From a virus (taxonomy: Duplodnaviria > Caudoviricetes), in the IMG/VR virus record IMGVR_UViG_3300020388_000009: a stretch of 64,000 bases of DNA. One strand, 5' to 3'. Shown here piece after piece: positions 7,003 through 63,679 of the stretch; position 1 is the stretch's first letter; each line of letters begins with the position of its first letter. A program made the position numbers and the translations under genes. The notes under the pieces were generated by a model that made no database searches, was not told where the DNA came from, and saw only the letters and a list, made by a program, of their open reading frames with translations.

Positions 7003-7318
7003 GTATATTCTCCACTGTTAAATCAATTCCTAATACTTCTTTTACTACTAATTCACAATCTTCGGCAGTTACTTTAATATCATCTCTAATGGTTTTTTGT
7101 CCAGAATATGTTTCAATTCCTTTAACTTTGCATATCAATTTTATAAATCGCTTCTTTTTTTCTGGATCTAATTGATTAACATTATATGCAATTTCATCAC
7201 CAGTCGCGGCTCCCACTTCCAATATAAGGAATACATCATCCCATTTATATGGATTTTCACCCCATGTACTTATACCGGTTATTGATCTTACATTATCCCA
7301 TCGTAAATTAATTGCCAT
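6995..7318 (-). CDS. Hypothetical protein
   Basis: 107 aa ORF directly behind an ATATTTAT motif. Confidence 0.6.
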   Translation of the reverse strand: MAINLRWDNVRSITGISTWGENPYKWDDVFLILEVGAATGDEIAYNVNQLDPEKKKRFIKLICKVKGIETYSGQKTIRDDIKVTAEDCELVVKEVLGIDLTVENIHV

Positions 7319-7323
7319 TTTAT

Positions 7324-7331
7324 ATAAATAT
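7324..7331 (-). promoter_or_regulatory. Putative late promoter ATATTTAT
   Basis: Motif recurs at 15 intergenic/upstream sites just 5' of minus-strand genes. Confidence 0.6.
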
Positions 7332-7336
7332 GCTCA

Positions 7337-8002
7337 TTAATGATAACCATTCAATAATTCTAATAAATCATCAATTGCGCCATGTCTATGAGAATCTTCC
7401 AATACAGTTTTAAATACATACTTTGAATTAGTTAGTTTAGACATATCATGATAAGCAGAATAATTTTTATCTTTAAGATCTATTTGATATGAATCTCCGC
7501 AAAAAATCATTTTAGAATCTTTGCCTAATCGACCAATTGCCATGGCGAGTTGAGATCTGGTTAAATTTTGAAATTCATCTACAATAACTACCGCATTATC
7601 AAAAGTACGTCCACGAAAATGTGCTAATGAACATAATTCGATTGATTCACTTTTTTCCATGGATTCTAATTTATCTGGTTTATTATATACCTTTCGCATA
7701 TTTGAACGGATAGGAACGAGCCATGGCTCCATCTTTTCTTTTTCAGATCCTGGTAAAAATCCGTTATCTTCTGTAGCAATTGTAGGCCTAGTAATTACTA
7801 TTTTATTATATTGGCGTTTAAAAAATTGATCCAATGCTACTTGTACTGCTAATAACGTTTTACCAGATCCTGCTTTACCGACAATAAAATTGAACGGATG
7901 TTCTAAAATTTGCATTTTTGCTGCTTTTTGTTCTGGTGATAATGATAATGAAAACCGAACTGCACCTTTTGGTGGAGTTTTTTCTGTATTTGCTTTTGCC
8001 AT
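7337..8002 (-). CDS. phoH: PhoH-family ATPase
   Basis: GKAGSGKT Walker A, ITRP, GFLPG, RGRTF, DEFQN, GDSYQID, HRH motifs. Confidence 0.95.
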   Translation of the reverse strand: MAKANTEKTPPKGAVRFSLSLSPEQKAAKMQILEHPFNFIVGKAGSGKTLLAVQVALDQFFKRQYNKIVITRPTIATEDNGFLPGSEKEKMEPWLVPIRSNMRKVYNKPDKLESMEKSESIELCSLAHFRGRTFDNAVVIVDEFQNLTRSQLAMAIGRLGKDSKMIFCGDSYQIDLKDKNYSAYHDMSKLTNSKYVFKTVLEDSHRHGAIDDLLELLNGYH

Positions 8003-8031
8003 CTCGTGACCCCTTTAGTTAACTATTTTAT

Positions 8032-8039
8032 ATAAATAT
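8032..8039 (-). promoter_or_regulatory. Putative late promoter ATATTTAT (phoH)
   Basis: Recurrent motif. Confidence 0.6.
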
Positions 8040-8047
8040 GTAACAGT

Positions 8048-8074
8048 GAAAGAGCCGGCTATAAACCGACTCTC
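8048..8074 (-). terminator. Probable intrinsic terminator after the AAA ATPase gene
   Basis: GAGAGTCGGTT-TAT-AGCCGGCTCTTTC hairpin with short U tract. Confidence 0.55.
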
Positions 8075-8085
8075 ACAACAACACA

Positions 8086-8859
8086 CTAACAACCCATTAC
8101 TTGTTCCGCCACCATTTGTCTCCAATTTGGAAATCCCATTTGACGAATTCTAATTGCTTTAATTAATGATCGGAAATTTAATTCAACGGCATCAAACTTT
8201 TTAAATGCAGATTTCAATGCACTTAAAGCTTCTTTTTTAATTTTCATGTCTTTAATTTCTGGTTCAATTACCGGAAGTAAATCAGTCATTCTTTTTAACA
8301 TTTGATTTGGAGTTAATGTTATATCCAATACAAATGCACGACTACGAATTGCACTATCTACTTTTTGAATTGGTAAATTAGATATAAAAATTATCTTACC
8401 AGTAAAATCAAATGATCTAGGAAGAGCATCACCATCTCTATCTTTAAGAGGTTTAGCTGACATCCAACTAATAACTCGTTTATCGTAACTATCTAAAGCT
8501 CCTTTTAATAAGTTAACACCATCTGAATCTTTAAATACTGAATCGCAGTCATCAAATATAATTAATTTATCGCTATTTTCAAATAATGTAATAAACATAC
8601 CTGCTGCAGTACAACGACCTTTTACATGTACAAAATCAATACCTTCTTCAAATCCTACTTCATCTAATGTTCTTGTAATATTAAATGTCTTTCCTAATCC
8701 AGGCATGCCGGTAACAACTAACGATGGAGAAACTCCAGCCGCTACCATTTTTGTCAAGTTATTCATATCATCAAACATTGCTGAAGGACGTTTCTTTTCT
8801 TGGAAAGTTTTAAAATTCATTTTCATGTTTTTGGTTTTTTGGTTTTTAGCTATACGCAT
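8086..8859 (-). CDS. AAA+-type P-loop ATPase
   Basis: GMPGLGKT Walker A, IIFDDCD Walker B, FISN sensor, AIRSR arginine finger. Confidence 0.85.
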   Translation of the reverse strand: MRIAKNQKTKNMKMNFKTFQEKKRPSAMFDDMNNLTKMVAAGVSPSLVVTGMPGLGKTFNITRTLDEVGFEEGIDFVHVKGRCTAAGMFITLFENSDKLIIFDDCDSVFKDSDGVNLLKGALDSYDKRVISWMSAKPLKDRDGDALPRSFDFTGKIIFISNLPIQKVDSAIRSRAFVLDITLTPNQMLKRMTDLLPVIEPEIKDMKIKKEALSALKSAFKKFDAVELNFRSLIKAIRIRQMGFPNWRQMVAEQVMGC

Positions 8860-8885
8860 ATCTCTATCTTTTAATTACTTATAAT

Positions 8886-8945
8886 TAAAGATAAGGAAAA
8901 GATCTCACGCTACCAAATCTTTTGGCAGCTTTTTTTAAAAAAGTT
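8886..8945 (-). promoter_or_regulatory. Bacteroidota-type early promoter TTTG-N20-TATCTTTA with A/T-tract UP element
   Basis: Matches the Bacteroidota primary-sigma -33 TTTG / -7 TAnnTTT(G) architecture; 43 bp identical to 56809-56851. Confidence 0.75.
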
Positions 8946-8946
8946 C

Positions 8947-8977
8947 AAAAAAAAACCCTCCATGGTAGGAGGGCTTT
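8947..8977 (-). terminator. Intrinsic terminator after the major capsid gene
   Basis: GCCCTCC-TACCAT-GGAGGGT followed by a long T run on the minus strand. Confidence 0.85.
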
Positions 8978-8999
8978 AATATAAAAATAATTTTAAATA

Positions 9000-10736
9000 C
9001 TATATAGTATCTAAGCCATGAACTAATACTTTACCGTAGAATTCAGGACGAACTATTTTCTTAGCATAACGAGTCATAACACCTTTTCTTGGAGTAAAGT
9101 TGTCTGGATCGTATACCAATGGAGTCATAATTAATGGAATGTATGGAGAATATACAGCACCTGTTTCTAGGAACTGAGATCCACGATATCCCATTAAAAT
9201 AGAATTTTCAGTCATATATGGATTCTTATAAACTTGGAATCTAGAATTAATAGATCCAACTTTTTGAACACCCATTGCAAACTGCATTTTATCACCATCT
9301 GTATCAGCAGCATATCCTGGAATAGATTCTAGGATAGTCGCAACAGTTGGAGAACATACAAGGAAGTTAGCTCCACCTCTTAAAGTTAATTGGTGAATTT
9401 TGTTCGAAACTTTTTGTATTTTAGTACCTAAAGTTTGGAACCATGTTCCTTGGTTATATGCTTGAGCTGCAGAATTTCCGGCATTAAATCCACCAACGGC
9501 TGCATTATACTCATAACCTACTTTCGCAGACCATCTTTCAACAGTTTGAGCATTTTCTTGTAACATGCCTAAAATTTCTAAATCAATTTCTTGCGAAACG
9601 TATTCAGATAACATGCTAGTCAATTCTGCTTCAGCATCAATTGAATGATATGCATTTAAATCTTGGGCAAATTCTGGAGTCCATACTGCCTTCAACTTAC
9701 GTGTCTTTGCAACAATGGCTTCAGATCTCATTTCAAGATTAATTTCTGGAATATTTAAAGAAGTGGAGCCGTTCATGTCTTCGTTAGGAGCTTGATCTTC
9801 GTAGTCACCTCTAGTAATATCAGATGGTTGTAACGCAAATGATACTTTAAATGCAGATGTCGCTTTGATATCTGCATCTTTCTTAATTAAGAATTCAATA
9901 TGCGAACCGTTAGCAGTTGTTCTAGTAAATTCTGGATAGAATGCATTTGATCCAGACAAGTTAAATGAACGAACAGCTTCTTGATCATAACGAGCAGCTA
10001 CAGATGCATCTGAATGTAATGATTTAGAAGGTACTGATAAAATAACATGATTATCACCATGTACAGATGCAGAAAACTCAGAATTAAAGTTTGTAAAGAT
10101 ACCTAACTCTGTAGCAGTCATTGCATCACCTGCTGATGCAGCAGTAGATGTAAATAAACCAGTAGTTGCAGATATAGAACCAGTTCTTGCAGTAGTAATT
10201 CCAGATTCACCTAATGTAACAGAAGCACCTTCCACCATATTAACTGAATATCCAAAACGACCTGGGCCATAAAGACCTTCAGTTCCTGGTGTTCCTTTAC
10301 GAGCATCAGTGATACCAAATACAGAATCAGATTGAGCATCTTTTCCTTGACCAGTCAAGAAATCATTTCCACCTGCTTGGTCAATTTGATTAACCGCAGT
10401 ACCATATTTAAAGTCTAAGTAAAATACTAGACCAGATGGTAAGTTCATTGGTTGTACAGAAACAAAGTCTTTAGCAGCAATTTCAGCAAAAATTCTACGA
10501 ACTAATGGAAGAGCTACCCCTGACCATTCTTCTGAATTTGAGTTTCCACCTGTCGCAGATGCTTCTGTTACCAATTGCTTGGCTTGGTTCTCTAAAAGAA
10601 CGGCCATGCCTTTTCTTTCAACCTCTGATGATAATCCTTCCAATAAACCAGTCCTTTCCCACTTACGTTCAAGTGCGATAGCAGCTGCATTTTGATTGGC
10701 ACGACCATCTTGAGGCAATAATGAATTTATATTCAT
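9000..10736 (-). CDS. gp23: Major capsid protein (T4 gp23-like)
   Basis: LLENQ, LPLVRR, VQPMNLPSGLVFYL, AKTRKLKA.WTPEFAQDL..H..DAE.EL, Y.PYIPL, F.P..G.MTRY motifs. Confidence 0.95.
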   Translation of the reverse strand: MNINSLLPQDGRANQNAAAIALERKWERTGLLEGLSSEVERKGMAVLLENQAKQLVTEASATGGNSNSEEWSGVALPLVRRIFAEIAAKDFVSVQPMNLPSGLVFYLDFKYGTAVNQIDQAGGNDFLTGQGKDAQSDSVFGITDARKGTPGTEGLYGPGRFGYSVNMVEGASVTLGESGITTARTGSISATTGLFTSTAASAGDAMTATELGIFTNFNSEFSASVHGDNHVILSVPSKSLHSDASVAARYDQEAVRSFNLSGSNAFYPEFTRTTANGSHIEFLIKKDADIKATSAFKVSFALQPSDITRGDYEDQAPNEDMNGSTSLNIPEINLEMRSEAIVAKTRKLKAVWTPEFAQDLNAYHSIDAEAELTSMLSEYVSQEIDLEILGMLQENAQTVERWSAKVGYEYNAAVGGFNAGNSAAQAYNQGTWFQTLGTKIQKVSNKIHQLTLRGGANFLVCSPTVATILESIPGYAADTDGDKMQFAMGVQKVGSINSRFQVYKNPYMTENSILMGYRGSQFLETGAVYSPYIPLIMTPLVYDPDNFTPRKGVMTRYAKKIVRPEFYGKVLVHGLDTI

Positions 10737-10749
10737 TTTCTTTTCCTTT

Positions 10750-11655
10750 TTACAGATTAGCTAATTTTTTCCATCTAGCAGATAATGCAGTACCTTCAGA
10801 AATCACTTTCTTTGGAGCTGTTGACCGACTAGGTGTAGAAGCATAGCTTTCTTTGATTGATCTTTTTGTTTTACCATTCAAGTTAAACGATTCAGATAAT
10901 GTAGCATAAACTAATTTTACTTCACGAATAGATGAAGCGCGATCAAAGTTTTCAATTACTTTCATTTTCTGAGATTCATTCATTGAATGATTTTTAAACA
11001 ATTTGTTTGAGAATAATAATTTTGCATTAAGAAGATTAACTTCATTAATTTTACCTTTCAAGAATCGAATAACGTTGTAAGCTTCTTCTAAGTCTTTTTT
11101 AGATTCGCCTTCATCTTCTTTAGCTTCTTCCACAGGGGTTTCATCTGCTTCATCTTCTTCTCTTAAAGCATTAATAATTTCATCAATAGAAATATCTTCA
11201 TCTACTTCATCGCCGCGGCCTTCTTCAGCCACAGGAGCATCATCTTCACCTTCTGCATTTTCTGCAACTGGTTCTTCAGAAGCTGGTTCTTCTTCTTCAT
11301 GAATTTCAGATTCTAATTCTTTGATAATCGCTTCTAATTCTAGATCTTCATCTTCAGCTACCGGCTCATCTTCAGGTGCCATTTCTTCAGAATGAACATC
11401 CATTGGATCTTCATCTGCATCCATGATACCTCTGCCTTCAGCTGCTACTGGCTCTTCCACCGGTGGTTCTTCAGCTACTGGTTCAGCTTCTAATTCTGGT
11501 TCATCTAAACCTTCTTCTTCAGCTAATTTAGCAGATAACATTGATTGTAATCTAGGAGTAAAAGCTTCTTCTAATGCAATTTTAGCATTAGCAAGTGCAG
11601 TTTCTCTTACGGCTTTCGCGTCTGCAATTGCTTCTTTTAATAAATCATTTGCCAT
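10750..11655 (-). CDS. Prohead scaffolding/core protein (gp22-like)
   Basis: Highly acidic, helical, immediately upstream of MCP, many (I/L)xE sites, C-terminal RWKKLA. Confidence 0.75.
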   Translation of the reverse strand: MANDLLKEAIADAKAVRETALANAKIALEEAFTPRLQSMLSAKLAEEEGLDEPELEAEPVAEEPPVEEPVAAEGRGIMDADEDPMDVHSEEMAPEDEPVAEDEDLELEAIIKELESEIHEEEEPASEEPVAENAEGEDDAPVAEEGRGDEVDEDISIDEIINALREEDEADETPVEEAKEDEGESKKDLEEAYNVIRFLKGKINEVNLLNAKLLFSNKLFKNHSMNESQKMKVIENFDRASSIREVKLVYATLSESFNLNGKTKRSIKESYASTPSRSTAPKKVISEGTALSARWKKLANL

Positions 11656-11817: not shown

Positions 11818-11840
11818 AAAAAAGTGCCAAAAGGCACAAT
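11818..11840 (-). terminator. Intrinsic terminator after bS21
   Basis: GTGCC-TTTT-GGCAC-TTTTTT. Confidence 0.7.
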
Positions 11841-11842: not shown

Positions 11843-12094
11843 TTACTGATTCTGGTCATCTAACCATTGATAATACTTGGCTCGATCAACCTCCTCTTTT
11901 CGTTTTTGACCTTTTGATTTAAATTCTTTACGGTCTTTTAATTCTTGAATCTTCCCAGATTCTTTTAATTCTCTTTTAAAAGCTTTTAATGCTGAGTTTA
12001 TATCACCTTTTGGATATTGTTTTGTTGATAAAACTTTAACAGCTACACCTGCACCAGGTATAATACTTTTGAAATGTTTACTTTGTTTACTCAT
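11843..12094 (-). CDS. rpsU: Phage-encoded 30S ribosomal protein bS21
   Basis: V.V....DINSALKAFKR..KESG..QELKDRKEF.SK..KR pattern of bS21; located in the head module as is known for bS21 phages. Confidence 0.85.
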   Translation of the reverse strand: MSKQSKHFKSIIPGAGVAVKVLSTKQYPKGDINSALKAFKRELKESGKIQELKDRKEFKSKGQKRKEEVDRAKYYQWLDDQNQ

Positions 12095-12150
12095 GTAACT
12101 TATTTTATTTTAATATTAATTGATAATATAACAAATATATTTCAAACGTC

Positions 12151-12564
12151 CTAATCTTCTGATAAAGATTCACCTATCTTATAATAACGATTTAAAACAG
12201 TACCCATATCTTCATATGCCGATTCTAAACGTTGTTGCATTGAACTCATCTCTGTTGCAGTTTTTTCAAAAACTTTATAAGCTTCATTCATTTGTTTCAT
12301 ATGTCTAGAAGTAGTAACATTATCAAACCAATGTTCAGTTTCTGATAAAGTCATCTTTTCTGCCCGTTCTACCACGCTTTTTAGAGTCTCTGCAACTTCT
12401 TTTAATCTACCCGAACCATATACCATCTCACCTAACTTATGAAAATTACCGACTGCTTCAAGAAACTCATTACGTTCTTCTTTTGTCATTTTTTCATCAT
12501 CTGTTTCTCCTAAATATTTTTCATTTAAGATATGCTTCATTAATTTGTTTTCGTATTTGTTCAT
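12151..12564 (-). CDS. Hypothetical head-module protein
   Basis: 137 aa, helical. Confidence 0.6.
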   Translation of the reverse strand: MNKYENKLMKHILNEKYLGETDDEKMTKEERNEFLEAVGNFHKLGEMVYGSGRLKEVAETLKSVVERAEKMTLSETEHWFDNVTTSRHMKQMNEAYKVFEKTATEMSSMQQRLESAYEDMGTVLNRYYKIGESLSED

Positions 12565-13070: not shown

Positions 13071-13676
13071 TTAAAACTCCGTTATAATATCAGTAATAAT
13101 ACGTTCTACATTTGCAAATTTATTTGCAGTAACAGATCCTTTAGATTCATTTACTGGAGATAAAAATGCTCCATGAGTGGATGGATTAGAAACAAAGTCA
13201 AATGCAATTAATTCAAAGTCTGGCTGTACCTCTAATGTATCTCCGCCTTCTCTCATTACTTCTTTAACAGATCCCATTCCTCGTGATGATATACCTAATC
13301 GTATACCTGATTTAAAAAGTTCTTTAAGAATATTTCCTGCAGGAGTTCCTAACACTTCAACTTTACCTACCAAATCATCCCCTTGCCATCCCATTTCTAA
13401 AACGTTATGAGATACATTATTTAAATTAACTACCGATGAATCCGGATGATCCAATTCTCCTAATGCACGTCGTTCTTTGATAAATGTAGCAGAATAATTA
13501 TTTGCTTCACGCATTAAAGTTTCTTTTGGATAAATTCTTCCATTTTGATTTTTTGCTTCTGCTCTCTGAAGAACTCCTTTTACAATTAATTTACCATTAT
13601 TTTGAGTTAATGATTCATTTATTGCTTGGGGTGATACTTCAAATACTGTATAATCTACTAAAAGTTGCTTATTCAT
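13071..13676 (-). CDS. gp21: Prohead core protease (T4 gp21-like)
   Basis: NQNGRIYP, ALGELDHP, VSH, GISSRGMGS, FDFVSNPS. Confidence 0.95.
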   Translation of the reverse strand: MNKQLLVDYTVFEVSPQAINESLTQNNGKLIVKGVLQRAEAKNQNGRIYPKETLMREANNYSATFIKERRALGELDHPDSSVVNLNNVSHNVLEMGWQGDDLVGKVEVLGTPAGNILKELFKSGIRLGISSRGMGSVKEVMREGGDTLEVQPDFELIAFDFVSNPSTHGAFLSPVNESKGSVTANKFANVERIITDIITEF

Positions 13677-15717: not shown

Positions 15718-17604
15718 TTATTCCTCAATTAATTGAGACTCATCTAACATTGTTCCAGAATCTGGTTCACTTGATTCATTTATTAATGTTTGTTTTAAAA
15801 TTTTAGATGATTTCATTGAATTAATTAATGAATTTATTTGTATATTTTCTGTACTTAAAGGCGATCCACCACGGTACTGATGTTGTAATGGTGACTTATC
15901 TGTGGATAATGACGAGCCTAATGATTTAATTGCCAATGGATCACGTCCATGTGGTGAATCATGAGTCCCCCATGATTGATGTTTTTCTGGGCGACCTGTA
16001 CCTGCTACATGTTCTTGCTCCTGGCCTGGTAATAAACCTCCTTTATTTGCAACATGCATTGAAGCAATGTCATGAGGCGTACCAAATGATTGATTTGTTT
16101 TTACAGGATCATTACCTTCTGATTTAATTTGTTCGCGACGGAAATCTTGTTTTAAATCTTCTATTACTTGTTCTTGTTCTCTAGTCCATTCATCATGACT
16201 TAATCCAAATACATTTTCATATATCCATCGTTGCGAAAATAAATTAGATTCTTTCATATTTGTAGCTAATCCAATTTTACTTTCTAATACTTCTACTTTT
16301 TGTTTTTCGTATATAATAGATGGGTTAGTTAAAGATAACTCAAAATTAACTAAATCCGCATCTTTATATCCTTGTGTATATAAATGTACAATTGCAATTT
16401 TAGTTAATTCAGATACAAATATTTTTTGTATACGTTCAATTGTTCTTGCAAACCGAACATCTTCTGCTGCTAATGTTGCCTTTCCTTCAACTCCTTCATC
16501 ATAACCTAAAAATGCTTTTGGTATTTTTAATGCAGAAAATAATTTATTTTTCAAGTAATCAATATCTTCAATTTGCCCTTCAGATGATAGACCTGGTAAT
16601 GCTTCAATTGATGTACCAGACTCGCCTCCACGAACTGGCATAAAATAATCTTCAATCATATTTTGCATATTAAATTTAAGATTATAATCTCCAGTCTTTT
16701 CATCAATATAAGGAACTTTTTTCATTTTACTCACAATTCCTTGAATATGGTTATCTACTTCTGCTGGTGGAATATTACCTACATCAATTTTAAATATTCT
16801 ACGTTCTGGCGCTCTCATTATACGATGAATTAACATTGCATCTTCCATAAGAGTTAATTGTTTAAATATTTTTCTAGCAGGTTCAATCATCGATTTACCA
16901 TATGGTAAAAAGTTTGTATCAGATAACATACGAAAATGAGCTATTTCAAAAGGTTGAAATTCTTGAGCATTTTGTTGATTATGATCAAATGATGCAAAAT
17001 TATGAGAACCGCCTCCATGCGTATTTTGTAATGTAAATTTATACGCATACGGATTGTTTTCATCAAATCCTTCTTCTCTCATAATTTCATATGCAGATAA
17101 AGGCATTACATTTACAATTCCAACTTCTTCTTCTATATCTAAATGTAGATAAAAATCACCATATTTACATGCATTTCTAATCCATGGCCATAAGTTATAA
17201 TCTATATTTAATATATCATAAAATAAATTTCTTAAAATTTTTCGTATTTCATCGTTTGGAGAAGTGATAGTTAATGTATCACCATCCGGATCTTTTACAG
17301 TGGATTCGTCAGCGTAAATATCTAAAGCAGATGATAATATAGGATCCATATCCATGGATTCATAATCTGTAAATAATTCTACTTTAGATGTATGAAATGT
17401 CTGATTTTGGTTATATGTTCCATATCCCGGGGTTCCTCTGTGAACGCCGGAGAACCTGTCCACATAACGTTTATTAGATAAATTACCGGTTGATTGTAAT
17501 CGATTTGTATCAACCGCCTTTAATCTATTTTTTGAGATTCTACGTACAACTACGTTAGTTGCAAATAATCTACTTAATCGTGCTCTTAATGAAGTATCTG
17601 TCAT
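15718..17604 (-). CDS. gp20: Portal protein (T4 gp20-like)
   Basis: LMEDAMLIHRIMRAPERRIFKIDVGN, EDYFMP.R, I..LPG, DIDY...KL...LK.P. Confidence 0.95.
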   Translation of the reverse strand: MTDTSLRARLSRLFATNVVVRRISKNRLKAVDTNRLQSTGNLSNKRYVDRFSGVHRGTPGYGTYNQNQTFHTSKVELFTDYESMDMDPILSSALDIYADESTVKDPDGDTLTITSPNDEIRKILRNLFYDILNIDYNLWPWIRNACKYGDFYLHLDIEEEVGIVNVMPLSAYEIMREEGFDENNPYAYKFTLQNTHGGGSHNFASFDHNQQNAQEFQPFEIAHFRMLSDTNFLPYGKSMIEPARKIFKQLTLMEDAMLIHRIMRAPERRIFKIDVGNIPPAEVDNHIQGIVSKMKKVPYIDEKTGDYNLKFNMQNMIEDYFMPVRGGESGTSIEALPGLSSEGQIEDIDYLKNKLFSALKIPKAFLGYDEGVEGKATLAAEDVRFARTIERIQKIFVSELTKIAIVHLYTQGYKDADLVNFELSLTNPSIIYEKQKVEVLESKIGLATNMKESNLFSQRWIYENVFGLSHDEWTREQEQVIEDLKQDFRREQIKSEGNDPVKTNQSFGTPHDIASMHVANKGGLLPGQEQEHVAGTGRPEKHQSWGTHDSPHGRDPLAIKSLGSSLSTDKSPLQHQYRGGSPLSTENIQINSLINSMKSSKILKQTLINESSEPDSGTMLDESQLIEE

Positions 17605-17626: not shown

Positions 17627-19204
17627 TTAGAGTAGCCATTTTAAATCGGAATTTTCACCATCTCCGGATTTCCATTGCCATTCTTTTGGAGTTTGCTGAT
17701 TAGCTGAATATACTCCTTGCGATTTTCCAAAATGTCCTAATGCTTTTCTATTTAAATCCATTCCTTGTTGTTGCAATCTTAATGCCGTATCACGCATCCA
17801 TAACCCTGTAGAAAATGACATTACAAGATCATCATTATAGCCTCGAGCAGCTTCTGCTCTATGACCTAACCAAACAAATGTAAATAACTCGTCTATCAAT
17901 CGTTTTGAATGAACTATCGGTGTCTTATCTCTAAAATATGTTTCTAATTTTGATATTACTAATGGACGAGTTCTTGATGTCATTGAAAATCCAGGGACAG
18001 TTTTTGACTTACCTTTTAAATCATAACCTTTACGTAAATGTATATCTTCATCCACATATCCATCTTGTTTATACGAATAATATAAATTTGAATATCCTTT
18101 ATCTAACGCAACTTGAATTGATGCCCAGCCAATATTTGCATTTTCAATAACTAGCAATGCATTGTTATATTCTGTTGCAACTGCAATTAACATATTACCA
18201 TATTCGGTAGTACCAATTTTACCTTTATATTCTGCAACTTGATGACATGTTTCAGTATCAAATACATGAAAGGCTGAATAATCCGTGGAATCGCCTCTCG
18301 CGACGTCAGCTACTACCATATAATTTTTGTTATAATCAGCATATTCCCATATCCAGAAATTAGAATCCATACCTCTTTTTTCAACTGGATCTTTAACGTG
18401 AGTATCTGCGTACCATTGTAATATTGCACCATCGACTACGGTATGACCTGATGATATAAAATCGCAATCACATTCTTGAGCAGCTCCCTTTTCTCCTAAT
18501 AACAAAGTTTGTTTTTCACGCCAAGCTTCATCTCGGTCTGGATGTACTGTCCAATGCAATTTTATTGTATTAAATTCTCCACCTGCTTCTGCATCTACCC
18601 ACATTCTATGAAACCAGTTACCTACCCCATTCGGAGTTGATAATGCAACGCAATCACCACCGGTGGCTAATGTTTGTTGTGCTGCGGTCCATATTTCATC
18701 AATGCGGTCAATAAAGGCTGCTTCATCAAAAATTAATAATGATAATGCTTCTGAACGACCGGCATCACCTTTAGATGATATTGCCTTTATTTGAGATCCA
18801 TTTGCATATCTTAATGATAATTTATTATCTTCTAACGTTTTACCTTTTAACCAGTTAGGTAAATTTTCATTCATTACTCGAACTTTAGTTACAAGATTTT
18901 TTGCAACGTCTTGTTTTGTTGCAATTACTAGTACATTGAAATCTGATCGAAATATCATTCTCCATAAAGCATATCCAGCAGTTAATGTTGATATACCTAA
19001 TTGACGTGATTTTAATATAATATTATATCGGTTTTCTTTAAGTTGAGTTAATGAATCTTCTTGAAATGGATATAAGTTAAACAACATTTTACCTTTAGTA
19101 GGATGTTGGATAATGCAATATTTACGCATGAAATGTATCGGATCCTGCGAACATCGTTTGTATTCGTCACTAATAATTTGCTTAAGAGATTTTTTAACTG
19201 CCAT
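17627..19204 (-). CDS. gp17: Terminase large subunit (T4 gp17-like)
   Basis: LYPFQ, KSRQLGIST, IFDEAAF, STPNG, ADVARG..DYS, NDDLVM. Confidence 0.95.
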   Translation of the reverse strand: MAVKKSLKQIISDEYKRCSQDPIHFMRKYCIIQHPTKGKMLFNLYPFQEDSLTQLKENRYNIILKSRQLGISTLTAGYALWRMIFRSDFNVLVIATKQDVAKNLVTKVRVMNENLPNWLKGKTLEDNKLSLRYANGSQIKAISSKGDAGRSEALSLLIFDEAAFIDRIDEIWTAAQQTLATGGDCVALSTPNGVGNWFHRMWVDAEAGGEFNTIKLHWTVHPDRDEAWREKQTLLLGEKGAAQECDCDFISSGHTVVDGAILQWYADTHVKDPVEKRGMDSNFWIWEYADYNKNYMVVADVARGDSTDYSAFHVFDTETCHQVAEYKGKIGTTEYGNMLIAVATEYNNALLVIENANIGWASIQVALDKGYSNLYYSYKQDGYVDEDIHLRKGYDLKGKSKTVPGFSMTSRTRPLVISKLETYFRDKTPIVHSKRLIDELFTFVWLGHRAEAARGYNDDLVMSFSTGLWMRDTALRLQQQGMDLNRKALGHFGKSQGVYSANQQTPKEWQWKSGDGENSDLKWLL

Positions 19205-23547: not shown

Positions 23548-23576
23548 GTTAGAATCCTTTTATATAAATATTAGTA

Positions 23577-24629
23577 TTAGAAAGAACCACCATCAATACT
23601 TCCGCTAGCATTACTTATGGTACCATTAACTGTTAAATTACCATCATTATCTAAATGCAATAATTCCACTCCCGGATTAATGCCGGCAAGTCCTGTATCT
23701 TTAAATACTCTGAATGCGGAATTCTCATGAGAATTTGCGTTATCCATTAATATATCAAAACCACCATTTGTTTTTATATAAGGAGAATTTGGTAAAGGTT
23801 GTCCATATGTTATAGGCGAGCCGCCATGTATGGATATACCCGATCCAGTTGTTGAATTTGATACATTTACAGCGTAAAATCCATCTACAACTCTTTGAAA
23901 GGATGAAGAACTTGGTAGATCAAATTCTAATGCATCTTTCTTATTATCAAGTAAACTTATTCGAGCAGTGGCACTACCAGTATCAGGTGTACCTTCTGAT
24001 GCAAGACCCCTTAATGCTCCAGAACCACTCACACGTACACAATATGAAATTGATGAGCCAGACATATGACTAAAATTGATATCATCAGCAATTGGTGCAC
24101 CGGTAATTGAATTGATAATATGTAGATATGTATTAAATCCGGAGCCAGATGCTAAATTTTGACCTTGTCCAAATGATGTTGTAAAAAATCCTGATGCGGA
24201 AATTGATAATCGATTTGTTGTAAATGAATGTGCGCGCAATGCAGCAATGGTACGTTTAGTTATCACAGATCCAGAAATTCCCATTGGTAATACAACTCGC
24301 ACTGCAGAGCCAGAAACTGTATTATTTTTAACGTTCGGTGTATCTCGTAATCCAAAAATACTACCGGTAGGTTCAACACTTGTACGATTTGAATTCTGAT
24401 AAAACACTTTGAAAGAATGGACATCTGGAGTTCTGAAATACCAAAATGATGCTGTTGCCGCCGCGGGAGCTAACACGCTTTGAGATAACGATGCCCCAGA
24501 CATGGTTACCACGTAATGTTGTGCCACAGAATTTATACTTTGTGATACACCTATCGTTGTTGAACCAGATGGTATAAAGAATAGTTTACCATCTATAGCT
24601 TGTATTGCATCTTTTGATAATTGTCCCAT
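23577..24629 (-). CDS. Virion/tail-associated Ser-rich protein
   Basis: 350 aa, ten [ST]GS motifs, C-terminal IDGGSF. Confidence 0.6.
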   Translation of the reverse strand: MGQLSKDAIQAIDGKLFFIPSGSTTIGVSQSINSVAQHYVVTMSGASLSQSVLAPAAATASFWYFRTPDVHSFKVFYQNSNRTSVEPTGSIFGLRDTPNVKNNTVSGSAVRVVLPMGISGSVITKRTIAALRAHSFTTNRLSISASGFFTTSFGQGQNLASGSGFNTYLHIINSITGAPIADDINFSHMSGSSISYCVRVSGSGALRGLASEGTPDTGSATARISLLDNKKDALEFDLPSSSSFQRVVDGFYAVNVSNSTTGSGISIHGGSPITYGQPLPNSPYIKTNGGFDILMDNANSHENSAFRVFKDTGLAGINPGVELLHLDNDGNLTVNGTISNASGSIDGGSF

Positions 24630-47731: not shown

Positions 47732-47781
47732 AGTATTATCCTTTTTAATAAATATGTTACATTAATAAATTAGGTTGATAA

Positions 47782-49773: not shown

Positions 49774-49794
49774 GATAATCCTTTTATATAAATA

Positions 49795-50583
49795 TCAAAG
49801 ATTTGTTGAATCGACTATATGACCTGATTTACGATAAACAGTATACATTTTCATATAATCTCGTTTCATTACATTGAGTACTTTTGTAATATTTTGTGTT
49901 TTTAATCCGGTACGTTCTCTAATTAGAATATATAATGCCTTTTTATTAAAGTTTTCTATATTCTCTCGTATTCTAAATAATTCAAGTATTGTATCGGCTA
50001 CAATGATATCACGTTTATTAACAAATATTGTATTAATATGAGTATCATACCAATTGACCCATAAATCGGTAAAATCTCGTAACGATTCTTGATGATCATT
50101 TAATGATACCTCTGCACTAATATTTCTATTAGCATCTATCTCAGATGGTTCACTACGTAATTTTAATTTTGCATAATTTGCATTATTTTGTATAATAAGA
50201 TAATTTTTAGCAACAATAGAAAAATAAGAAAAAGCTTTTCCTTTCCCTTCTTGATACTTTCCTATTTTTTCTGTTAAAAATGCTACTACTTCTGCTTTAA
50301 CATCTTCATAAGGTACATCAAAATACGAAAATCTAAATGTATGATAAATATTTTCTACTAATTTATTAAAAGGATAATTAATATGCTCACGAAATACTTT
50401 ATTACGTTTAGCATAACTAGATTCTTTATTATATGCAATAATCGCTTGATCTGTCATGTATGTGAAATACATATTTTTTGTAGGTTTTCTACCACGACGT
50501 TTTTTTGGACCATTCGATTCTATATCTGATAATTCTTTTTCTAACCATTCATAAAATTTATCAACTGGGCTAAGTGTTTCCAT
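49795..50583 (-). CDS. gp55: Late-transcription sigma factor (T4 gp55-like)
   Basis: N-terminal YF, F.Y, sigma region 2-like KGKAFSYFSIVAKNYL. Confidence 0.75.
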   Translation of the reverse strand: METLSPVDKFYEWLEKELSDIESNGPKKRRGRKPTKNMYFTYMTDQAIIAYNKESSYAKRNKVFREHINYPFNKLVENIYHTFRFSYFDVPYEDVKAEVVAFLTEKIGKYQEGKGKAFSYFSIVAKNYLIIQNNANYAKLKLRSEPSEIDANRNISAEVSLNDHQESLRDFTDLWVNWYDTHINTIFVNKRDIIVADTILELFRIRENIENFNKKALYILIRERTGLKTQNITKVLNVMKRDYMKMYTVYRKSGHIVDSTNL

Positions 50584-50868: not shown

Positions 50869-51612
50869 TTAATCTCCAAATAAATCGTTAAACATTTTAT
50901 TAGCATTGATTTGTGTTTGCGGATTTGTTATTTTCTTTTTAGGTGTATTAGTAGTAATAGGTTTATTATTATTCCAACGCTCATACTCTATCCTCGCTGC
51001 CATACAATCAGCTTGGTGCATTACATACCCTAAATTAGTTTTTAATTTAGCATCTGCGGATCTAGAAATAAAATATGGTTTATTGGAATCATCATATAAT
51101 CCATCTGTTAATTTAATACCTAACATTTCATTCCATGATATTTCTATTCCATAATGTTGTAATAACCAAATAGATAAGTCATTTACTAATGTAAATGGAT
51201 TATTAGGATTAATTTTATATTCTTTGCCTTGATTCTTTCTATGCCATTCAGAGTCATTCCATTGATAAACTTCGTTACCATCTCCTGGAAATCCCATTTT
51301 ACCAATATCATGATTTAATGCAGTAAAAATAAGTTCTTCGCGCGTATAACCAGACATATCAGCTTCCATATCCGTCCATAAGTCATATACCTTTTTAGCA
51401 CATTTTATTACACGTAAAACATGTTCAACATAACCGCCAGCAAAGGCATTATGAAAATGGCTATAAGAAGAAGCTGGAGCCATAGCCATGCGGTCTTCTA
51501 AATCAGTATACATTGCTAATAATTTATCTTTACGAGTTCCTGTAAATTCTGTTTTTATGACGTTTAATAATTCGTCCCAATTCTGTGCTATTTGATCGGC
51601 TGTTAATTTCAT
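50869..51612 (-). CDS. HD-domain phosphohydrolase (YhaM-like)
   Basis: APAS...HNAF.GGYVEH, HDIGK, HQAD. Confidence 0.85.
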   Translation of the reverse strand: MKLTADQIAQNWDELLNVIKTEFTGTRKDKLLAMYTDLEDRMAMAPASSYSHFHNAFAGGYVEHVLRVIKCAKKVYDLWTDMEADMSGYTREELIFTALNHDIGKMGFPGDGNEVYQWNDSEWHRKNQGKEYKINPNNPFTLVNDLSIWLLQHYGIEISWNEMLGIKLTDGLYDDSNKPYFISRSADAKLKTNLGYVMHQADCMAARIEYERWNNNKPITTNTPKKKITNPQTQINANKMFNDLFGD

Positions 51613-52220
51613 ATTATTGTATCAATTACGTTATATTCTTTTAATTGTTCCGCGGTTAAGTATAAATCTGATTTCATATTATCTTTCCACCAAGCTTGGT
51701 CTTTATTAGTTTTTTCTGCTAATATATCATATATAGTCTTTTCTATATTCTTTACGTTATCTAAGTATGCAGATATATCACTCATTTTACCTCCTAAGAA
51801 ACTAGATGATTGATGAAACATAACTGTTGAACGTTTACTCATCATTCTTGTACCAGTACCACATGATAAAATAATAGCCGCCGCGGAAAAGGCTCTACCT
51901 CTACAAATTGTATTCACTTTAACATCTAATGATTCAATATAATCAATAATACCTAACATTTCATGAACATCACCACCTGGAGAATTGATCATTAAATTAA
52001 CAGGTGCTGTTTTATCTTCACGATTTTGCAATAAACTACGCATACGTATAATAAGATCTGTTAATGTAGTATCAGTTATTTCATCATTAAGAAATATTAT
52101 TGAATCATTATAATCAACTAATGTAGCTAATTGATTATGTAAGGCCTCATACAATGAGCCATTTTCTTTTTCATCTTCTTGCTCCACCGGCTGCGTAGCA
52201 TTTTCATCGTATATACTCAT
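51609..52220 (-). CDS. clpP: ClpP-family protease
   Basis: INSPGG, G.A.SAA (Ser), MFHQ (His), D.YL.A (Asp). Confidence 0.9.
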   Translation of the reverse strand: MSIYDENATQPVEQEDEKENGSLYEALHNQLATLVDYNDSIIFLNDEITDTTLTDLIIRMRSLLQNREDKTAPVNLMINSPGGDVHEMLGIIDYIESLDVKVNTICRGRAFSAAAIILSCGTGTRMMSKRSTVMFHQSSSFLGGKMSDISAYLDNVKNIEKTIYDILAEKTNKDQAWWKDNMKSDLYLTAEQLKEYNVIDTII

Positions 52221-53906: not shown

Positions 53907-54080
53907 TTAACTTGCGGTTACGCGGTCAGTCACAAACTTTAATTTTTGACGGATAGTACGAAATCGATTTCTAGCTTCTAACGGATCAATAGGATTGCCA
54001 TTCTTTACTGCTTGATCAATAATCATGACCATGTTATCAGTTTCGTCTAGTATTCTTAATACATTTTCTCTATCTTTCAT
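53907..54080 (-). CDS. Small hypothetical protein (57 aa)
   Basis: Hand-translated MKDRENVLRILDE...; AAGG upstream and ATATTTAT at 54104-54111. Confidence 0.55.
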   Translation of the reverse strand: MKDRENVLRILDETDNMVMIIDQAVKNGNPIDPLEARNRFRTIRQKLKFVTDRVTAS

Positions 54081-55123
54081 AGTAAAACCTTTTTATTATA
54101 TTGATAAATATCGCGATAACGTAAAACTGCCAATTCTTTGGCTTTAGCTTCTACTACAATATCTAAATCCATATCATAAGTACGTATCTCATCTTTGATA
54201 TAATTGGAATGAGCTTGCATACGTATCTTATCTATGTCATGTTTCATTTTAGCAAACGTTGGCCATTCGCTAACTTCGTTAAGTGGAATATTCTGCTTAG
54301 CCATTTTAGCTTCAAACTTACGTTGGAACTCATGTCTACGACATTCGCTATAATGAGTACATTGTCTAACATCATCTGGCCATGTACTAGCAGCCATCTG
54401 TAATGCTTCGTATTCGCTAAGGCCAGCCGGATGGAACATATGATGATGATAATCAAATGTAATAGGTATGCCAGTCTCGCGATGGAACAGGTCATACAAT
54501 TGACGCACGCTATACATGGAAGGCTTATCATCATTCTCAACAACTAAACGAGCTCTACATGCTTCAGATAATCGATAATAGTTTTTGATCCATCTGGTTG
54601 CAGTAGTCTCGTGGTCACCATAAGCGCCGCCAATATGAATATTGATCTTGTTCTCATGAGATGGTGTATAGCCCATAAGGTCCCATAGTTCGGAATGTCG
54701 CTCAAGACCGATAATAGTCTTATCAACAACATGCTCATGCGGAGAACCTAACACATGAAATGGACCTGGATGTGTAGTTAATCGATGACCATGCTCTCGA
54801 GCATAGTTACCACATTCTAACAACTTAGCTGCTAACTCATCATACTGAGGAAGTTCATGTAATTCGAATTGATCATGCCATGGCACTAATTCAGAACCTA
54901 CACGAAATAATTTGATGTTATGGTCTTCGTTCCATTTCAGATAATGTAACAAGTCAGTAGCGTTTAGTAATGCACGCTCACCTAACAATGACAAGTCACG
55001 CGTTGGATACCAGCTAGCTTTTCTAGCCGTACGAGAAGTTGTAACTCTACCACCTAACTTTTTTGGCCTCTCGGTTAACGTCATGTTAACACAGGCATAA
55101 CCTAGTCTTACGTTTTCATTCAT
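54077..55123 (-). CDS. uvsE: UV damage endonuclease UvsE/UvdE
   Basis: RLGYAC, FRV.S, HPG, IH.GG, VENDD, FDYHH, HYS, AHS, EAK.KE. Confidence 0.92.
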   Translation of the reverse strand: MNENVRLGYACVNMTLTERPKKLGGRVTTSRTARKASWYPTRDLSLLGERALLNATDLLHYLKWNEDHNIKLFRVGSELVPWHDQFELHELPQYDELAAKLLECGNYAREHGHRLTTHPGPFHVLGSPHEHVVDKTIIGLERHSELWDLMGYTPSHENKINIHIGGAYGDHETTATRWIKNYYRLSEACRARLVVENDDKPSMYSVRQLYDLFHRETGIPITFDYHHHMFHPAGLSEYEALQMAASTWPDDVRQCTHYSECRRHEFQRKFEAKMAKQNIPLNEVSEWPTFAKMKHDIDKIRMQAHSNYIKDEIRTYDMDLDIVVEAKAKELAVLRYRDIYQYNKKVLL

Positions 55124-56791: not shown

Positions 56792-56851
56792 TAAAAATAA
56801 GGAATAGTTCTCACGCTACCAAATCTTTTGGCAGCTTTTTTTAAAAAAGTT
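56792..56851 (-). promoter_or_regulatory. Bacteroidota-type early promoter TTTG-N20-TATTTTTA
   Basis: AAAAGATTTGGTAG conserved block; duplicate of 8903-8945. Confidence 0.75.
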
Positions 56852-59728: not shown

Positions 59729-59767
59729 TAAATATAACAATTCTTTTTCATTCTACCAAATCTTTTT
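59729..59767 (-). promoter_or_regulatory. Bacteroidota-type early promoter TTTG-N20-TATATTTA
   Basis: AAAAAGATTTGGTAG block. Confidence 0.75.
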
Positions 59768-59782
59768 CAAGAAATGTTTAAG

Positions 59783-61323: not shown

Positions 61324-61326
61324 TGT

Positions 61327-61512: not shown

Positions 61513-61541
61513 AACATTAATCCTTTTTAATAAATATACAA

Positions 61542-61763: not shown

Positions 61764-61776
61764 TTAATATAAATAT

Positions 61777-62045: not shown

Positions 62046-62046
62046 A

Positions 62047-62358
62047 TTATAAGTTTATATTTGAACCTTTCACATTTCTTTCATTACCAAGCATCCACTT
62101 CAGAGTAGCAGACGGAATACCTATATTAAGATGTGGTTCTAATTTAGCTAATGCTTGAGTAACATCAAATGCTATGATAGGTATATTTTTTTCAATACCA
62201 TTATCTAAAAATCGCACTTCATAAATATAATGATCTGCTATTTTACTAACGCCTTGAAGTTTGATTGAAAGAATAGCTGTTAGTTTGCCTTTACTAACTA
62301 CATCTTGAATTAGATCTGGTTTTTCTTGTTGATATTTTCTTCGTAACATATTATACAT
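62047..62358 (-). CDS. Hypothetical protein
   Basis: 103 aa. Confidence 0.55.
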   Translation of the reverse strand: MYNMLRRKYQQEKPDLIQDVVSKGKLTAILSIKLQGVSKIADHYIYEVRFLDNGIEKNIPIIAFDVTQALAKLEPHLNIGIPSATLKWMLGNERNVKGSNINL

Positions 62359-62485
62359 TTTTACTTTTAAATTCTCGTATACGATATGCCAGGTAACCTA
62401 TAGCAGGTGCACCTAACAATACAGTTATTAGGTTAGGATGTGACTCACCACATAAGCCTAACGCATGTTTAAGGAACTCTAACAT
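62351..62485 (-). CDS. 44-aa membrane peptide with H..G.CGE.HP motif
   Basis: Hand-translated MLEFLKHALGLCGESHPNLITVLLGAPAIGYLAYRIREFKSKNV. Confidence 0.5.
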   Translation of the reverse strand: MLEFLKHALGLCGESHPNLITVLLGAPAIGYLAYRIREFKSKNV

Positions 62486-62607
62486 TGACCGGTAATCATT
62501 GCAAAGGTCCATAATGAAGCAGTAAATAATGCTATTGTACCTATCAGGAATGTAATCCCTGCTAACGCTTCTTTATCCGTTGGATGCATGTTTTTCAAAA
62601 TTTTCAT
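62479..62607 (-). CDS. 42-aa membrane peptide
   Basis: Hand-translated; first ORF after an early promoter. Confidence 0.5.
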   Translation of the reverse strand: MKILKNMHPTDKEALAGITFLIGTIALFTASLWTFAMITGQC

Positions 62608-62641
62608 AACTCTTTGTTTTTCTTAATAATTATCTACTATA

Positions 62642-62680
62642 TAAAAATAAGAAATCTTTTTCACTCTACCAAATCTTTTT
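62642..62680 (-). promoter_or_regulatory. Bacteroidota-type early promoter TTTG-N20-TATTTTTA
   Basis: AAAAAGATTTGGTAGAGTGA block. Confidence 0.75.
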
Positions 62681-62873
62681 ACAGCTTTTTTTCAGATTTG
62701 TTTGGATTCCAGCCTTGAATTCTTCTTAACGCATAATCCCACCTTTCATTGGCAGTTTTATGATCATGCTTAGATTGCATGCGCATCTTTTCAAGTTGAT
62801 TATCAAATTCTTTTTGAAGTCCTTTATCACGAACTTCATTAAACATATCCATCATACTGTCTTCTAAACTCAT
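62679..62873 (-). CDS. Hypothetical protein
   Basis: 64 aa. Confidence 0.55.
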   Translation of the reverse strand: MSLEDSMMDMFNEVRDKGLQKEFDNQLEKMRMQSKHDHKTANERWDYALRRIQGWNPNKSEKKL

Positions 62874-62884
62874 GGCATATCCTT

Positions 62885-63127
62885 TTATTTACGCACACGA
62901 TATAAACTTGAGCCAAATCCGGTGCGGCCTTTGGAATCATATCGTCGCATTTCTTTTATTGCATCTGTATCTTTTATTACTTCAACTTCCGAGTAAGTTG
63001 TTTTACCTGTTATAACTGGCCTTGCGTACCATTGGCTGGTACTTGAACAGTTAACACATGTTTTTGTATTTGGTAATATTTGTATTCTACCTTCTGGTAT
63101 CCGAGAATTGCATTTTATACAGTCCAT
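62885..63127 (-). CDS. DksA/TraR C4-type zinc-finger protein
   Basis: CIKC...IPEGR....P....CVNC. Confidence 0.75.
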   Translation of the reverse strand: MDCIKCNSRIPEGRIQILPNTKTCVNCSSTSQWYARPVITGKTTYSEVEVIKDTDAIKEMRRYDSKGRTGFGSSLYRVRK

Positions 63128-63130
63128 AAC

Positions 63131-63451
63131 TTATTTTTTTATGTTACCTTTTATGAAATCTTTTTGTTTTTTAATAGCTTGATCAAGCTCTGATTTTTTT
63201 GTAGTCTGTTTTCTGGTATCTATGCTCCTTGTTGACTTTGCGCCAGGAGTATCTGAAATAAAAGCTTCTATAAACCATACCGATTTTTTATCTTTATGAG
63301 CCTTCCATCGCAGATTAGGAATGATGACTCCAGTTTTTATATTACGTGCTTTGTATGTTGTCTTATCAACCACTTCAATAATCTCGCAAACGTAGTTCGA
63401 GCCAATAAAATTGACCCGAACAATATTTCCTAATTTTAATTTCTTACGCAT
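63131..63451 (-). CDS. Hypothetical protein (SH3/Tudor-like)
   Basis: LKLGNIVRV N-terminus. Confidence 0.55.
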   Translation of the reverse strand: MRKKLKLGNIVRVNFIGSNYVCEIIEVVDKTTYKARNIKTGVIIPNLRWKAHKDKKSVWFIEAFISDTPGAKSTRSIDTRKQTTKKSELDQAIKKQKDFIKGNIKK

Positions 63452-63611
63452 TCTTTAACACATATGATTCAACTTTGTTACAAATTGCTTCAAATTCGCG
63501 AATCGCATTATTAGGCGAAACGGTTTGAGCTTTTACTAATGATCCATTACTTGAAATGGAAACTAAACTACCTGATAACTCTACCTGCATTGTACCGAAT
63601 GACTTTTTCAT
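63444..63611 (-). CDS. Small hypothetical protein (55 aa)
   Basis: Hand-translated MKKSFGTMQVELSGSLVSI...; first ORF after an early promoter. Confidence 0.5.
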   Translation of the reverse strand: MKKSFGTMQVELSGSLVSISSNGSLVKAQTVSPNNAIREFEAICNKVESYVLKNA

Positions 63612-63640
63612 ATCTCTATCTTTTAATTTATTAATATAAT

Positions 63641-63679
63641 TAAAGATAAGAAAAATATTTCACTCTACCAAATCTTTTT
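63641..63679 (-). promoter_or_regulatory. Bacteroidota-type early promoter TTTG-N20-TATCTTTA
   Basis: AAAAAGATTTGGTAGAGTGA block. Confidence 0.75.

Follow-up and report, generated by a model that had tools for sequence, protein, structure and literature searches.

Of all ribosomal proteins, bS21 is the one that phages encode most frequently. Here we analyse a stretch of 64,000 nucleotides of tailed-phage DNA (Duplodnaviria; Caudoviricetes; IMG/VR record IMGVR_UViG_3300020388_000009), referred to as the window, with respect to its bS21 gene and the Shine-Dalgarno (SD) sites of its late genes. Bacteroidetes myophages from freshwater that encode bS21 were described by Chen et al. (2022, ISME Commun 2:31, PMC9723584), who proposed that the phage protein enters host ribosomes and favours late phage transcripts. 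The window shares with these phages the position of bS21 within a block of genes for the large terminase (TerL), portal, protease and the major capsid protein (MCP), the presence of PhoH and ClpP, and a Bacteroidia-type bS21 with Tyr54. It differs from them in that bS21 lies on the opposite strand in the clades of Chen et al., whereas it is co-directional in the window and in all 54 bS21-encoding loci of the present set, and in that their genomes reach 331 kb, compared with 157–190 kb for the complete relatives found here. SD content was not analysed in that study, and the SD pattern is what the present analysis adds. A role of phage bS21 in favouring late mRNAs has already been put forward in print in general terms, whereas a search of the full-text literature turned up no report that connects a phage-encoded bS21 with SDs on phage genes. 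The phage is a new member of a known bS21-encoding group, with an SD feature that has not been described in the literature searched.

The closest described ribosomal system is that of Flavobacterium johnsoniae (Jha 2021, PMC7797042; McNutt 2023, PMC9976891; Arpin 2026, PMC13000457), which involves the same protein and the same 16S rRNA tail, and in which it depends on the make-up of the 30S subunit whether SDs are read. There, the 3' tail of the 16S rRNA is held by bS21, bS18 and bS6, and removal of bS21, of its C-terminus or of Tyr54 frees it (PMC9976891, PMC13000457). Tyr54, a signature residue of the Bacteroidia, stacks on A1534 and helps to conceal the anti-SD sequence (ASD) (PMC7797042). 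F. johnsoniae relies on a lack of bS21 and on a single gene with a single SD of 13 bp, whereas the phage would use the presence of a variant bS21 and SDs of 6–7 nt on dozens of genes. Host rpsU carries an extreme SD (PMC9976891), the opposite of the SD-less phage bS21 gene. Other phages with bS21, namely Pelagibacter phage HTVC008M (Mizuno 2019) and those of Al-Shayeb et al. (2020, PMC7162821), resemble the present one in the basic N-terminal extension of the protein and in the competitive ribosome entry proposed for it. However, their hosts read SDs anyway, and no class-specific SD pattern was reported there for S21; Al-Shayeb et al. noted the N-terminal extensions of S21 and tied only rpS1 to non-canonical SDs (PMC7162821).

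SD use in relatives with and without bS21

Relatives were collected in two scans of IMG/VR with MCP queries, which yielded 156 loci, most of them fragments. The presence of bS21 was scored with a profile built from bS21 hits, and loci were counted as bS21-less where enough upstream sequence was available (50 loci). SDs were scored as the duplex energy of positions −20 to −3 with the 16S tail of F. johnsoniae (ACCUCCUUUCU), a gene being taken as SD-bearing at ΔG ≤ −5; this tail agrees with the residue numbering in PMC7797042, and the host of the window is itself an inferred one. Since a tblastn search of bS21 against cultured phages matched a Vibrio phage only and missed the bS21 of Microcystis phage Mel-JY01, absence from whole records was re-tested with the Pfam profile PF01165.

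The bS21 gene lies 1.1–1.5 kb upstream of the MCP gene, always co-directional, in 54 distinct loci, and is lacking from 50. Across 106 loci, the median share of SD-bearing genes is 50% (range 31–83) with bS21 and 8% (range 0–46) without it (Mann–Whitney U test, p = 2e-18). When distinct orthologous leaders are compared, the MCP gene has an SD in 95% of 42 leaders from bS21-encoding phages, where it is kept although its exact sequence varies, and in 0/27 from bS21-less ones. The corresponding shares are 94% and 18% for the scaffold-like gene, 59% and 14% for the protease gene, and 62% and 0% for the PhoH gene. The portal gene (0% in both groups) and the TerL gene (10% with and 12% without bS21) are consistently SD-poor and have no SD in the window, which indicates that SDs in bS21-encoding phages are a mark of virion proteins made in many copies and not of late genes in general.

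The result is the same for whole records. Among those with bS21, SDs precede 42% of the genes in the window, 48% in G006, 31% in G005, 30% in Mel-JY01, 25% in G007 and 18% in G014. Two complete genomes, Flavobacterium phage vB_FspM_immuto (NC_055915; 160 kb) and G013 (162 kb, with terminal repeats), resemble the window in their T4-like head module, gene order, MCP (54–57% identity) and late motif TATTTAT. Unlike the window, they have no PF01165 match anywhere in the genome and bear SDs on 6% and 8% of their genes, respectively; the bS21-less fragment G001 has SDs on 4%. Behind the late motif, which is common to both groups, SDs are found in 21–60% of cases in bS21-encoding genomes, whereas the counts are 0/32 for immuto and 0/9 for G001, and the share in G013 is 3%. 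GC content is alike in the two groups (0.32–0.37). In bS21-less genomes, the region from −13 to −10 consists of 60–69% A, and an A-rich upstream region is a Bacteroidia-type initiation signal (PMC13000457). The initial annotation had named a comparison of relatives with and without bS21 as a check on its proposal; in this comparison, the bS21-less relatives show no late SD bias. The link between bS21 and SD use is well supported by the comparative evidence. The bS21-less sister phages, which have the same late promoters, represent a natural control. Published ideas go no further than that phage bS21 may favour phage mRNAs; the SD pattern points to the mRNA element on which such selection would act, a short AAAGGAG site, together with its carriers (capsid, scaffold, protease, tail and PhoH genes) and its non-carriers (portal, terminase and bS21 itself).

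Two further observations concern the bS21-less phages. SD-like tetramers occur at −17 to −5 in only 2–4% of the genes of immuto, G001 and G013, against about 11% at random positions in the window, which suggests that they are actively avoided, as would be expected with SD-blind hosts. In the bS21-less loci L050 and L054, AAGAGGACA and AAAAGGACA are retained ahead of the scaffold-like gene, with no SD on any of the genes around it, and these sites may be relics left after loss of bS21.

SD sites and promoter classes within the window

The late motif of the window is ATATTTAT. Overall, its 28 copies are no excess over the 24 expected, yet of the 24 copies on the coding strand, 15 are found in the 45 nt that precede a start codon (binomial p = 6e-14). 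It resembles T4 late promoters in being a short A/T-rich single box with no −35-like partner, located 15–30 nt upstream of late genes, in a phage that has homologues of gp23, gp20 and gp17. It differs in sequence, since the gp55-type late promoter of T4 is TATAAATA and the putative one of the window is (C)ATATTTAT. The temporal order of early and late genes is inferred from promoter types only.

The initial annotation had reported an AGG in front of 13 of the 15 genes behind the late motif, and A-rich leaders with no AGG for the first genes behind the five strongest host-type promoters. Both statements were reproduced (13/15 compared with 0/5; Fisher's exact test, p = 0.0014). On the minus strand, on which all features given here lie, the late motif at 49,788–49,795 is followed by ATAAAAGGATTATC and the ATG at 49,773, that at 47,748–47,755 by TAAAAAGGATAATACT and the ATG at 47,731, and that at 23,564–23,571 by ATAAAAGGATTCTAAC and the ATG at 23,547. 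The motif at 61,530–61,537, followed by TAAAAAGGATTAATGTT and the ATG at 61,512, belongs to a late unit inside the early module. The two exceptions are near-leaderless, as had been stated: their motifs (7,324–7,331 and 61,769–61,776) end 5 nt before the ATG at 7,318 and 61,763, respectively.

The duplex energies extend this division to whole modules. SDs were found for 59% of the 44 genes of the late module (mean ΔG −4.9) and for 17% of the 30 genes of the early module (mean ΔG −1.9; Mann–Whitney U test, p = 1.2e-4), with 11.6% at random positions. When genes were assigned by inherited transcription unit, the shares were 51% of 51 late genes and 21% of 24 host-type genes (p = 0.0014). The split of SDs by promoter class, for which the initial annotation had asked for pairing energies, is real.

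Among the structural genes, the SD-like elements previously noted for the MCP, scaffold and protease genes were all recovered. The MCP gene (9,000–10,736; Gp23 family, Pfam PF07068, E 1e-77) carries AAAAAGGAAAAG with the core AAAGGA (ΔG −6.2), the scaffold-position gene (10,750–11,655) carries AAGAGGAAAAATC with GAGGA, and the prohead maturation protease gene (13,071–13,676; phrog_207, E 4e-53) carries AAAGGATAAAA with AAAGGA. The genes without an SD comprise the late genes for portal (15,718–17,604; Gp20 family, Pfam) and T4-type TerL (17,627–19,204; Pfam), the SbcC-like gene and three genes to which the initial annotation had already ascribed SD-less leaders: DNA primase (33,644–34,567; phrog_47, ΔG +2.9), located in the late half of the window, the UvdE endonuclease (54,077–55,123; Pfam; called uvsE there), whose host-type promoter abuts the ATG, and bS21. 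The ClpP gene (51,609–52,220; Pfam PF00574, E 8e-36) is the partial exception it had been taken for, with a host-type promoter and a partial SD (AAAAGG, which contains AAAGG).

The elements as candidate sites of SD-led initiation

The geometry of the elements was determined on a pooled set of the window and two related bS21-encoding contigs. In this set, the frequency of G peaks at −11 to −8 (29–33%, background about 12%) and the motif ends 5–9 nt from the ATG. The consensus AAAGGAG pairs with C1536–U1542 of the 16S tail. Complementarity to the 16S tail, a spacing peak of 5–9 nt and the excess of SDs on late genes over random positions all conform to SD-led initiation.

A quite different reading is that phage bS21 is a spare part which keeps ribosomes complete once host synthesis has ceased, while AAAGGA acts in mRNA stability, in a promoter-proximal function or in the binding of another factor. 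Many SDs do lie directly after the late motif, and a control with shuffled ASDs was weak, as the true ASD beat 93/100 composition-matched shuffles and ranked 7th of 100. As every shuffle is itself a run of pyrimidines, the control separates poorly, and de novo k-mer enrichment was used instead. The k-mers most enriched relative to the bS21-less phages were AAGGA, AAAGG, AGGAG and AAAGGA (p down to 1e-14), which are exact sub-strings of the ASD complement and occur at canonical spacing. The persistence of the SD in MCP leaders despite their sequence variation also speaks against functions unrelated to the ASD. The strongest SDs of the window (GGAGGAGGA, GGAGGA and AAAGGAG) belong to three tail-fibre/baseplate-region genes (23,577–25,486; starts at 25,486, 24,986 and 24,629), internal genes far from any late motif and with none in front, so the SD is not a piece of the promoter. 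Since SDs occur without the motif, and bS21-less phages have the motif without AAAGGA, AAAGGA was rejected as part of the late promoter. Taken together, we regard the spare-part reading as very improbable.

The phage bS21 protein and a possible mechanism

The bS21 gene (11,843–12,094) encodes 83 amino acids, of which residues 29–74 match PF01165 (34 bits, cut-off 27; E 2.4e-8). Its best matches among solved ribosomes are the bS21 chains of 9i5v and of F. johnsoniae 7jil (E about 1e-3). Residues 31–81 align with residues 11–61 of 7jil_z, which places Y74 at the position of F. johnsoniae Tyr54, and the C-terminus (KYYQWLDDQNQ) is host-like, acidic and weakly basic, a Bacteroidia-type signature associated with ASD masking. 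At the Tyr54 position, 40 of 52 distinct phage bS21 proteins in an alignment have Y, 8 have R, 3 have F and 1 has A, and SDs are used in every one of these lineages. What universally distinguishes the 52 proteins from host bS21 is a basic N-terminal extension with a conserved S-I-x-P-G motif, represented in the window protein by about 20 extra basic residues. An AlphaFold2 (AF2) model of the window protein (predicted local distance difference test score, pLDDT, 80.5) has helices at residues 32–46, 48–54 and 61–82 and an extra N-terminal helix at 3–11; a Foldseek search with this model gave no significant match in the PDB. In a protein atlas search, the window bS21 retrieved viral S21 clusters only.

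Based on these features and on the F. johnsoniae system, we propose the following sequence of events, hypothetical from (iii) onwards, in which (i) infection starts on host-style signals, namely Bacteroidota-type sigma-A promoters and A-rich SD-less leaders, readable by SD-blind host ribosomes; (ii) one such SD-less unit is a stand-alone cassette for phage bS21; (iii) the protein would enter host 30S subunits and displace host bS21; (iv) 30S subunits with phage bS21 would pair the 16S 3' tail (UCCUUU/CUCC) with short SDs of 6–7 nt and the consensus AAAGGAG; and (v) these SDs, placed 5–9 nt upstream of abundant virion genes transcribed from the phage late promoters ATATTTAT, would give the phage a private translation channel late in infection. 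The basic N-terminal extension, not Tyr54, is the part of bS21 most likely responsible. As a whole, the explanation that phage bS21 lets the host 30S subunit read late-gene SDs is a tentative one, to which we would give just short of an even chance. The fuller version, in which the N-terminal extension turns an SD-blind Bacteroidia 30S subunit into an SD-reading one, host mRNAs are excluded for want of SDs and late SDs decay after loss of bS21, is possible but somewhat short of probable. The interpretation offered by the initial annotation stands in part: the SD split by promoter class and the comparison of relatives bear it out, while the replacement of host bS21 and the changed availability of the ASD are putative steps.

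Several observations weigh against the proposed explanation. The window protein retains Tyr54 and a host-like, weakly basic C-terminus, and Chen et al. read Tyr54 as a sign of continued ASD blocking (PMC9723584). On the MCP trees, bS21 changes state 4 times, with 3–4 independent gains or losses; the independent pairs on supported branches number 1 (65 rows) and 3 (106 rows), all of which agree, and 3–4 transitions are too few for a sign test to reach significance. One clear exception is the bS21-less 21-kb fragment L116, which combines SD-less head genes with an SD-rich tail run, in which five consecutive overlapping tail genes (L116:7371-9351) have strong GGAGG-type sites of down to −13 kcal/mol. 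Its bS21 might lie outside the fragment, and since most loci are fragments, bS21 could lie elsewhere in some of the other contigs scored as lacking it. Conversely, G014 encodes bS21 yet bears SDs on only 18% of its genes genome-wide. Nor is synthesis of bS21 ahead of the late mRNAs a general rule, since some relatives have the gene behind the late motif. Finally, Mel-JY01, the nearest cultured relative with bS21, is annotated with a Microcystis host.

Since Tyr54 is kept in the window and varies among SD-using relatives, with both Y and R lineages using SDs, loss of this masking residue was rejected as the cause of SD use in the window. The retained Tyr54 would also fit a course of events in which host bS21 is lost late in infection, either because rpsU is shut off or because the protein is degraded (phage ClpP being one candidate), and bS21-free ribosomes read the SD mRNAs, while phage bS21 does another task, such as sustaining the translation of SD-less phage mRNAs or damping the rpsU feedback loop of the host. 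Ribosomes of F. johnsoniae that lack bS21 do gain SD recognition (PMC9976891, PMC13000457), and McNutt et al. speculated on bS21 exchange and on a phage protease attacking host bS21 (PMC9976891). ClpP is encoded in the window, G005, G006, G014 and Mel-JY01 and is absent from the complete bS21-less genomes of immuto and G013. However, bS21-free ribosomes of F. johnsoniae favour only the 13-bp SD of rpsU, that is, extended SDs below −13 kcal/mol, and an mRNA with a weak SD does worse on them (PMC9976891, m291 data). The phage SDs are short (6–7 nt, −5 to −9 kcal/mol), and simple absence of bS21 would therefore presumably not serve them. In addition, a 13-bp helix clashes with the C-terminal helix of bS21, whereas in other bacteria helices of ≤7 bp pass between those of bS21 (PMC13000457); the short phage SDs are thus a better fit to a bS21-carrying ribosome with an exposed tail than to a bS21-free host ribosome. 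The L054 lineage, with ClpP and without bS21, has no SDs apart from the scaffold-leader site mentioned above, and late loss of host bS21 leaves unexplained why SDs occur only where the phage brings its own. We consider this course of events distinctly unlikely.

The small number of transitions and the fragmentary state of most loci also lend weight to the possibility that bS21 and SDs both mark a third variable, either another phage gene, located beyond the 20-kb neighbourhoods sampled, or a clade of hosts with conditional SD reading, with bS21 not being causal. Consistent with this, several proteins, such as UvdE, w35089 and w33656, are confined to bS21-encoding genomes among those compared, and L116 breaks the association. 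Yet in these same genomes the early genes lack SDs, so that infection begins on host ribosomes that have no need of them; moreover, bS21 is the only gene of the head-gene neighbourhood that co-varies perfectly with the two groups (54/54 versus 0/50), and among ribosomal proteins it alone is known to act as a gate for the ASD in Bacteroidia. We therefore rate a third variable as unlikely. ClpP as a sufficient driver was rejected, as it is present in the bS21-less, SD-poor G003 (L054 lineage), and so was the neighbouring gene w12564, found in 6/50 bS21-less loci including the SD-poor L054 lineage.

The preferred explanation, SD reading conferred by phage bS21, can be tested with existing SD reporters and bS21-depleted ribosomes of F. 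johnsoniae and with the cultured phages Mel-JY01 and immuto. If true, it would offer a clear example from nature in which a virus, by exchanging a single ribosomal protein, resets which mRNAs the ribosome selects, and it would explain the retention of the ASD in SD-blind bacteria as a latent function open to exploitation.

The bS21 cassette

The bS21 gene is preceded by a host-type promoter-like region (12,123–12,154; TTAGG-N18-TTATATTAT, with the −7-like box TATATTTG), the architecture of which is that of the early promoters and is conserved upstream of bS21 in close relatives. In the window, its leader is A/T-rich and SD-less, with AAGTTAC just before the ATG, and none of 35 distinct orthologous bS21 leaders carries an SD. 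An intrinsic terminator (GTGCCTTTTGGCAC plus a T run; 11,818–11,837) directly follows the gene, which makes bS21 a monocistronic, stand-alone cassette. The scaffold-like and MCP genes form a separate unit after this terminator, ended by a second terminator at 8,977–8,952.

The motif GTTAY, mostly as AAGTTAY, is found within the last 10 nt before the bS21 start in 22/48 distinct leaders (window 12,095–12,108; L003–L181), compared with 1–4% of other genes; outside the motif, the leaders have diverged. A role as an autoregulatory operator or as a special initiation signal is possible. In the clade of L062, L070, L072, L075, L063 and L064, the late motif ATATTTATA precedes bS21 and runs into a GC-rich hairpin and a T run, followed by an SD-less leader, an arrangement that may serve in attenuation or in stabilising the 5' end. 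The bS21 of this L062/L070 clade has Arg in place of Tyr54, and the L070/G005 clade is without Tyr54.

Gene content of the window

The window encodes about 75 genes of a T4-like myophage, all on the minus strand. The T4-like assignment is based on matches to PF07068 (Gp23 MCP), PF07230 (Gp20 portal) and PF03237 (Gp17-type terminase) and to baseplate wedge PHROGs. The head block has the order TerL, portal, protease, w12956, w12564, bS21, scaffold-like gene, MCP and PhoH, and further genes identified by Pfam or PHROGs encode an ATP-dependent ligase, an SbcC-like nuclease, and baseplate wedge and tail-fibre proteins. A megablast search of the GenBank phage collection with 20 kb of the window found no near-identical phage. 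MCP similarity places Mel-JY01 and the Flavobacterium phages vB_FspM_immuto closest among cultured phages, with 57% identity each.

Early promoters and host

The 13-nt box TTTGGTAGNGTGA occurs in five minus-strand copies in the window, compared with 0.28 expected by chance, and each copy is followed after about 14 nt by TTATnTTTA, a Bacteroidota-type −7-like box. The first copy, the −33 box TTTGGTAGCGTGA at 8,905–8,917, precedes an AAA ATPase gene (8,859–8,086) with an SD-less leader. The others are located at 56,811–56,823 (gene start 56,762; SD-less leader), 59,748–59,760 (one mismatch; gene start 59,700, with the leader AAAGAAAGAGAAG containing no GG), 62,661–62,673 (short open reading frame starting at 62,607) and 63,660–63,672 (gene start 63,611). 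The last 22 nt before the five starts are A-rich.

Five promoters of the form TTTGGTAG...TTATnTTTA together with A-rich SD-less leaders conform to the sigma-A architecture of the Bacteroidota (−33 TTTG, −7 TAnnTTTG), and textbook promoters of the type TTTG-N19-GTATATTTGTA are present in the relatives G005 and Mel-JY01. These promoters and the Bacteroidia-type bS21 indirectly support a Bacteroidota-type host, as the initial annotation had assumed, and the nearest bS21-less cultured phage, immuto, infects Flavobacterium (sp. LMO8). A ClpP query against bacterial genomes found no relatives for host assignment.

The 190-kb genome of Mel-JY01 (PP395634.1; loci L199–L209) has RpsU annotated between the protease and scaffold genes, as well as ClpP, and bears SDs on 30% of all genes and 57% of those behind the late motif. 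Its early promoters are of the Bacteroidota type (CTTGC-N-GTAnnTTTGTA, with 22 TAnnTTTG boxes), which makes the annotated cyanobacterial host look doubtful and deserving of a check.

The early box of the window, at 13 nt, is far longer than the host −33 element TTTG, and its length may point to an extra factor or a regulator site. Behind one of these strong early promoters, the frame starting at 62,607 (62,480–62,607) encodes fewer than 50 amino acids with a hydrophobic stretch, and lies below the 50-amino-acid limit of the open reading frame list.

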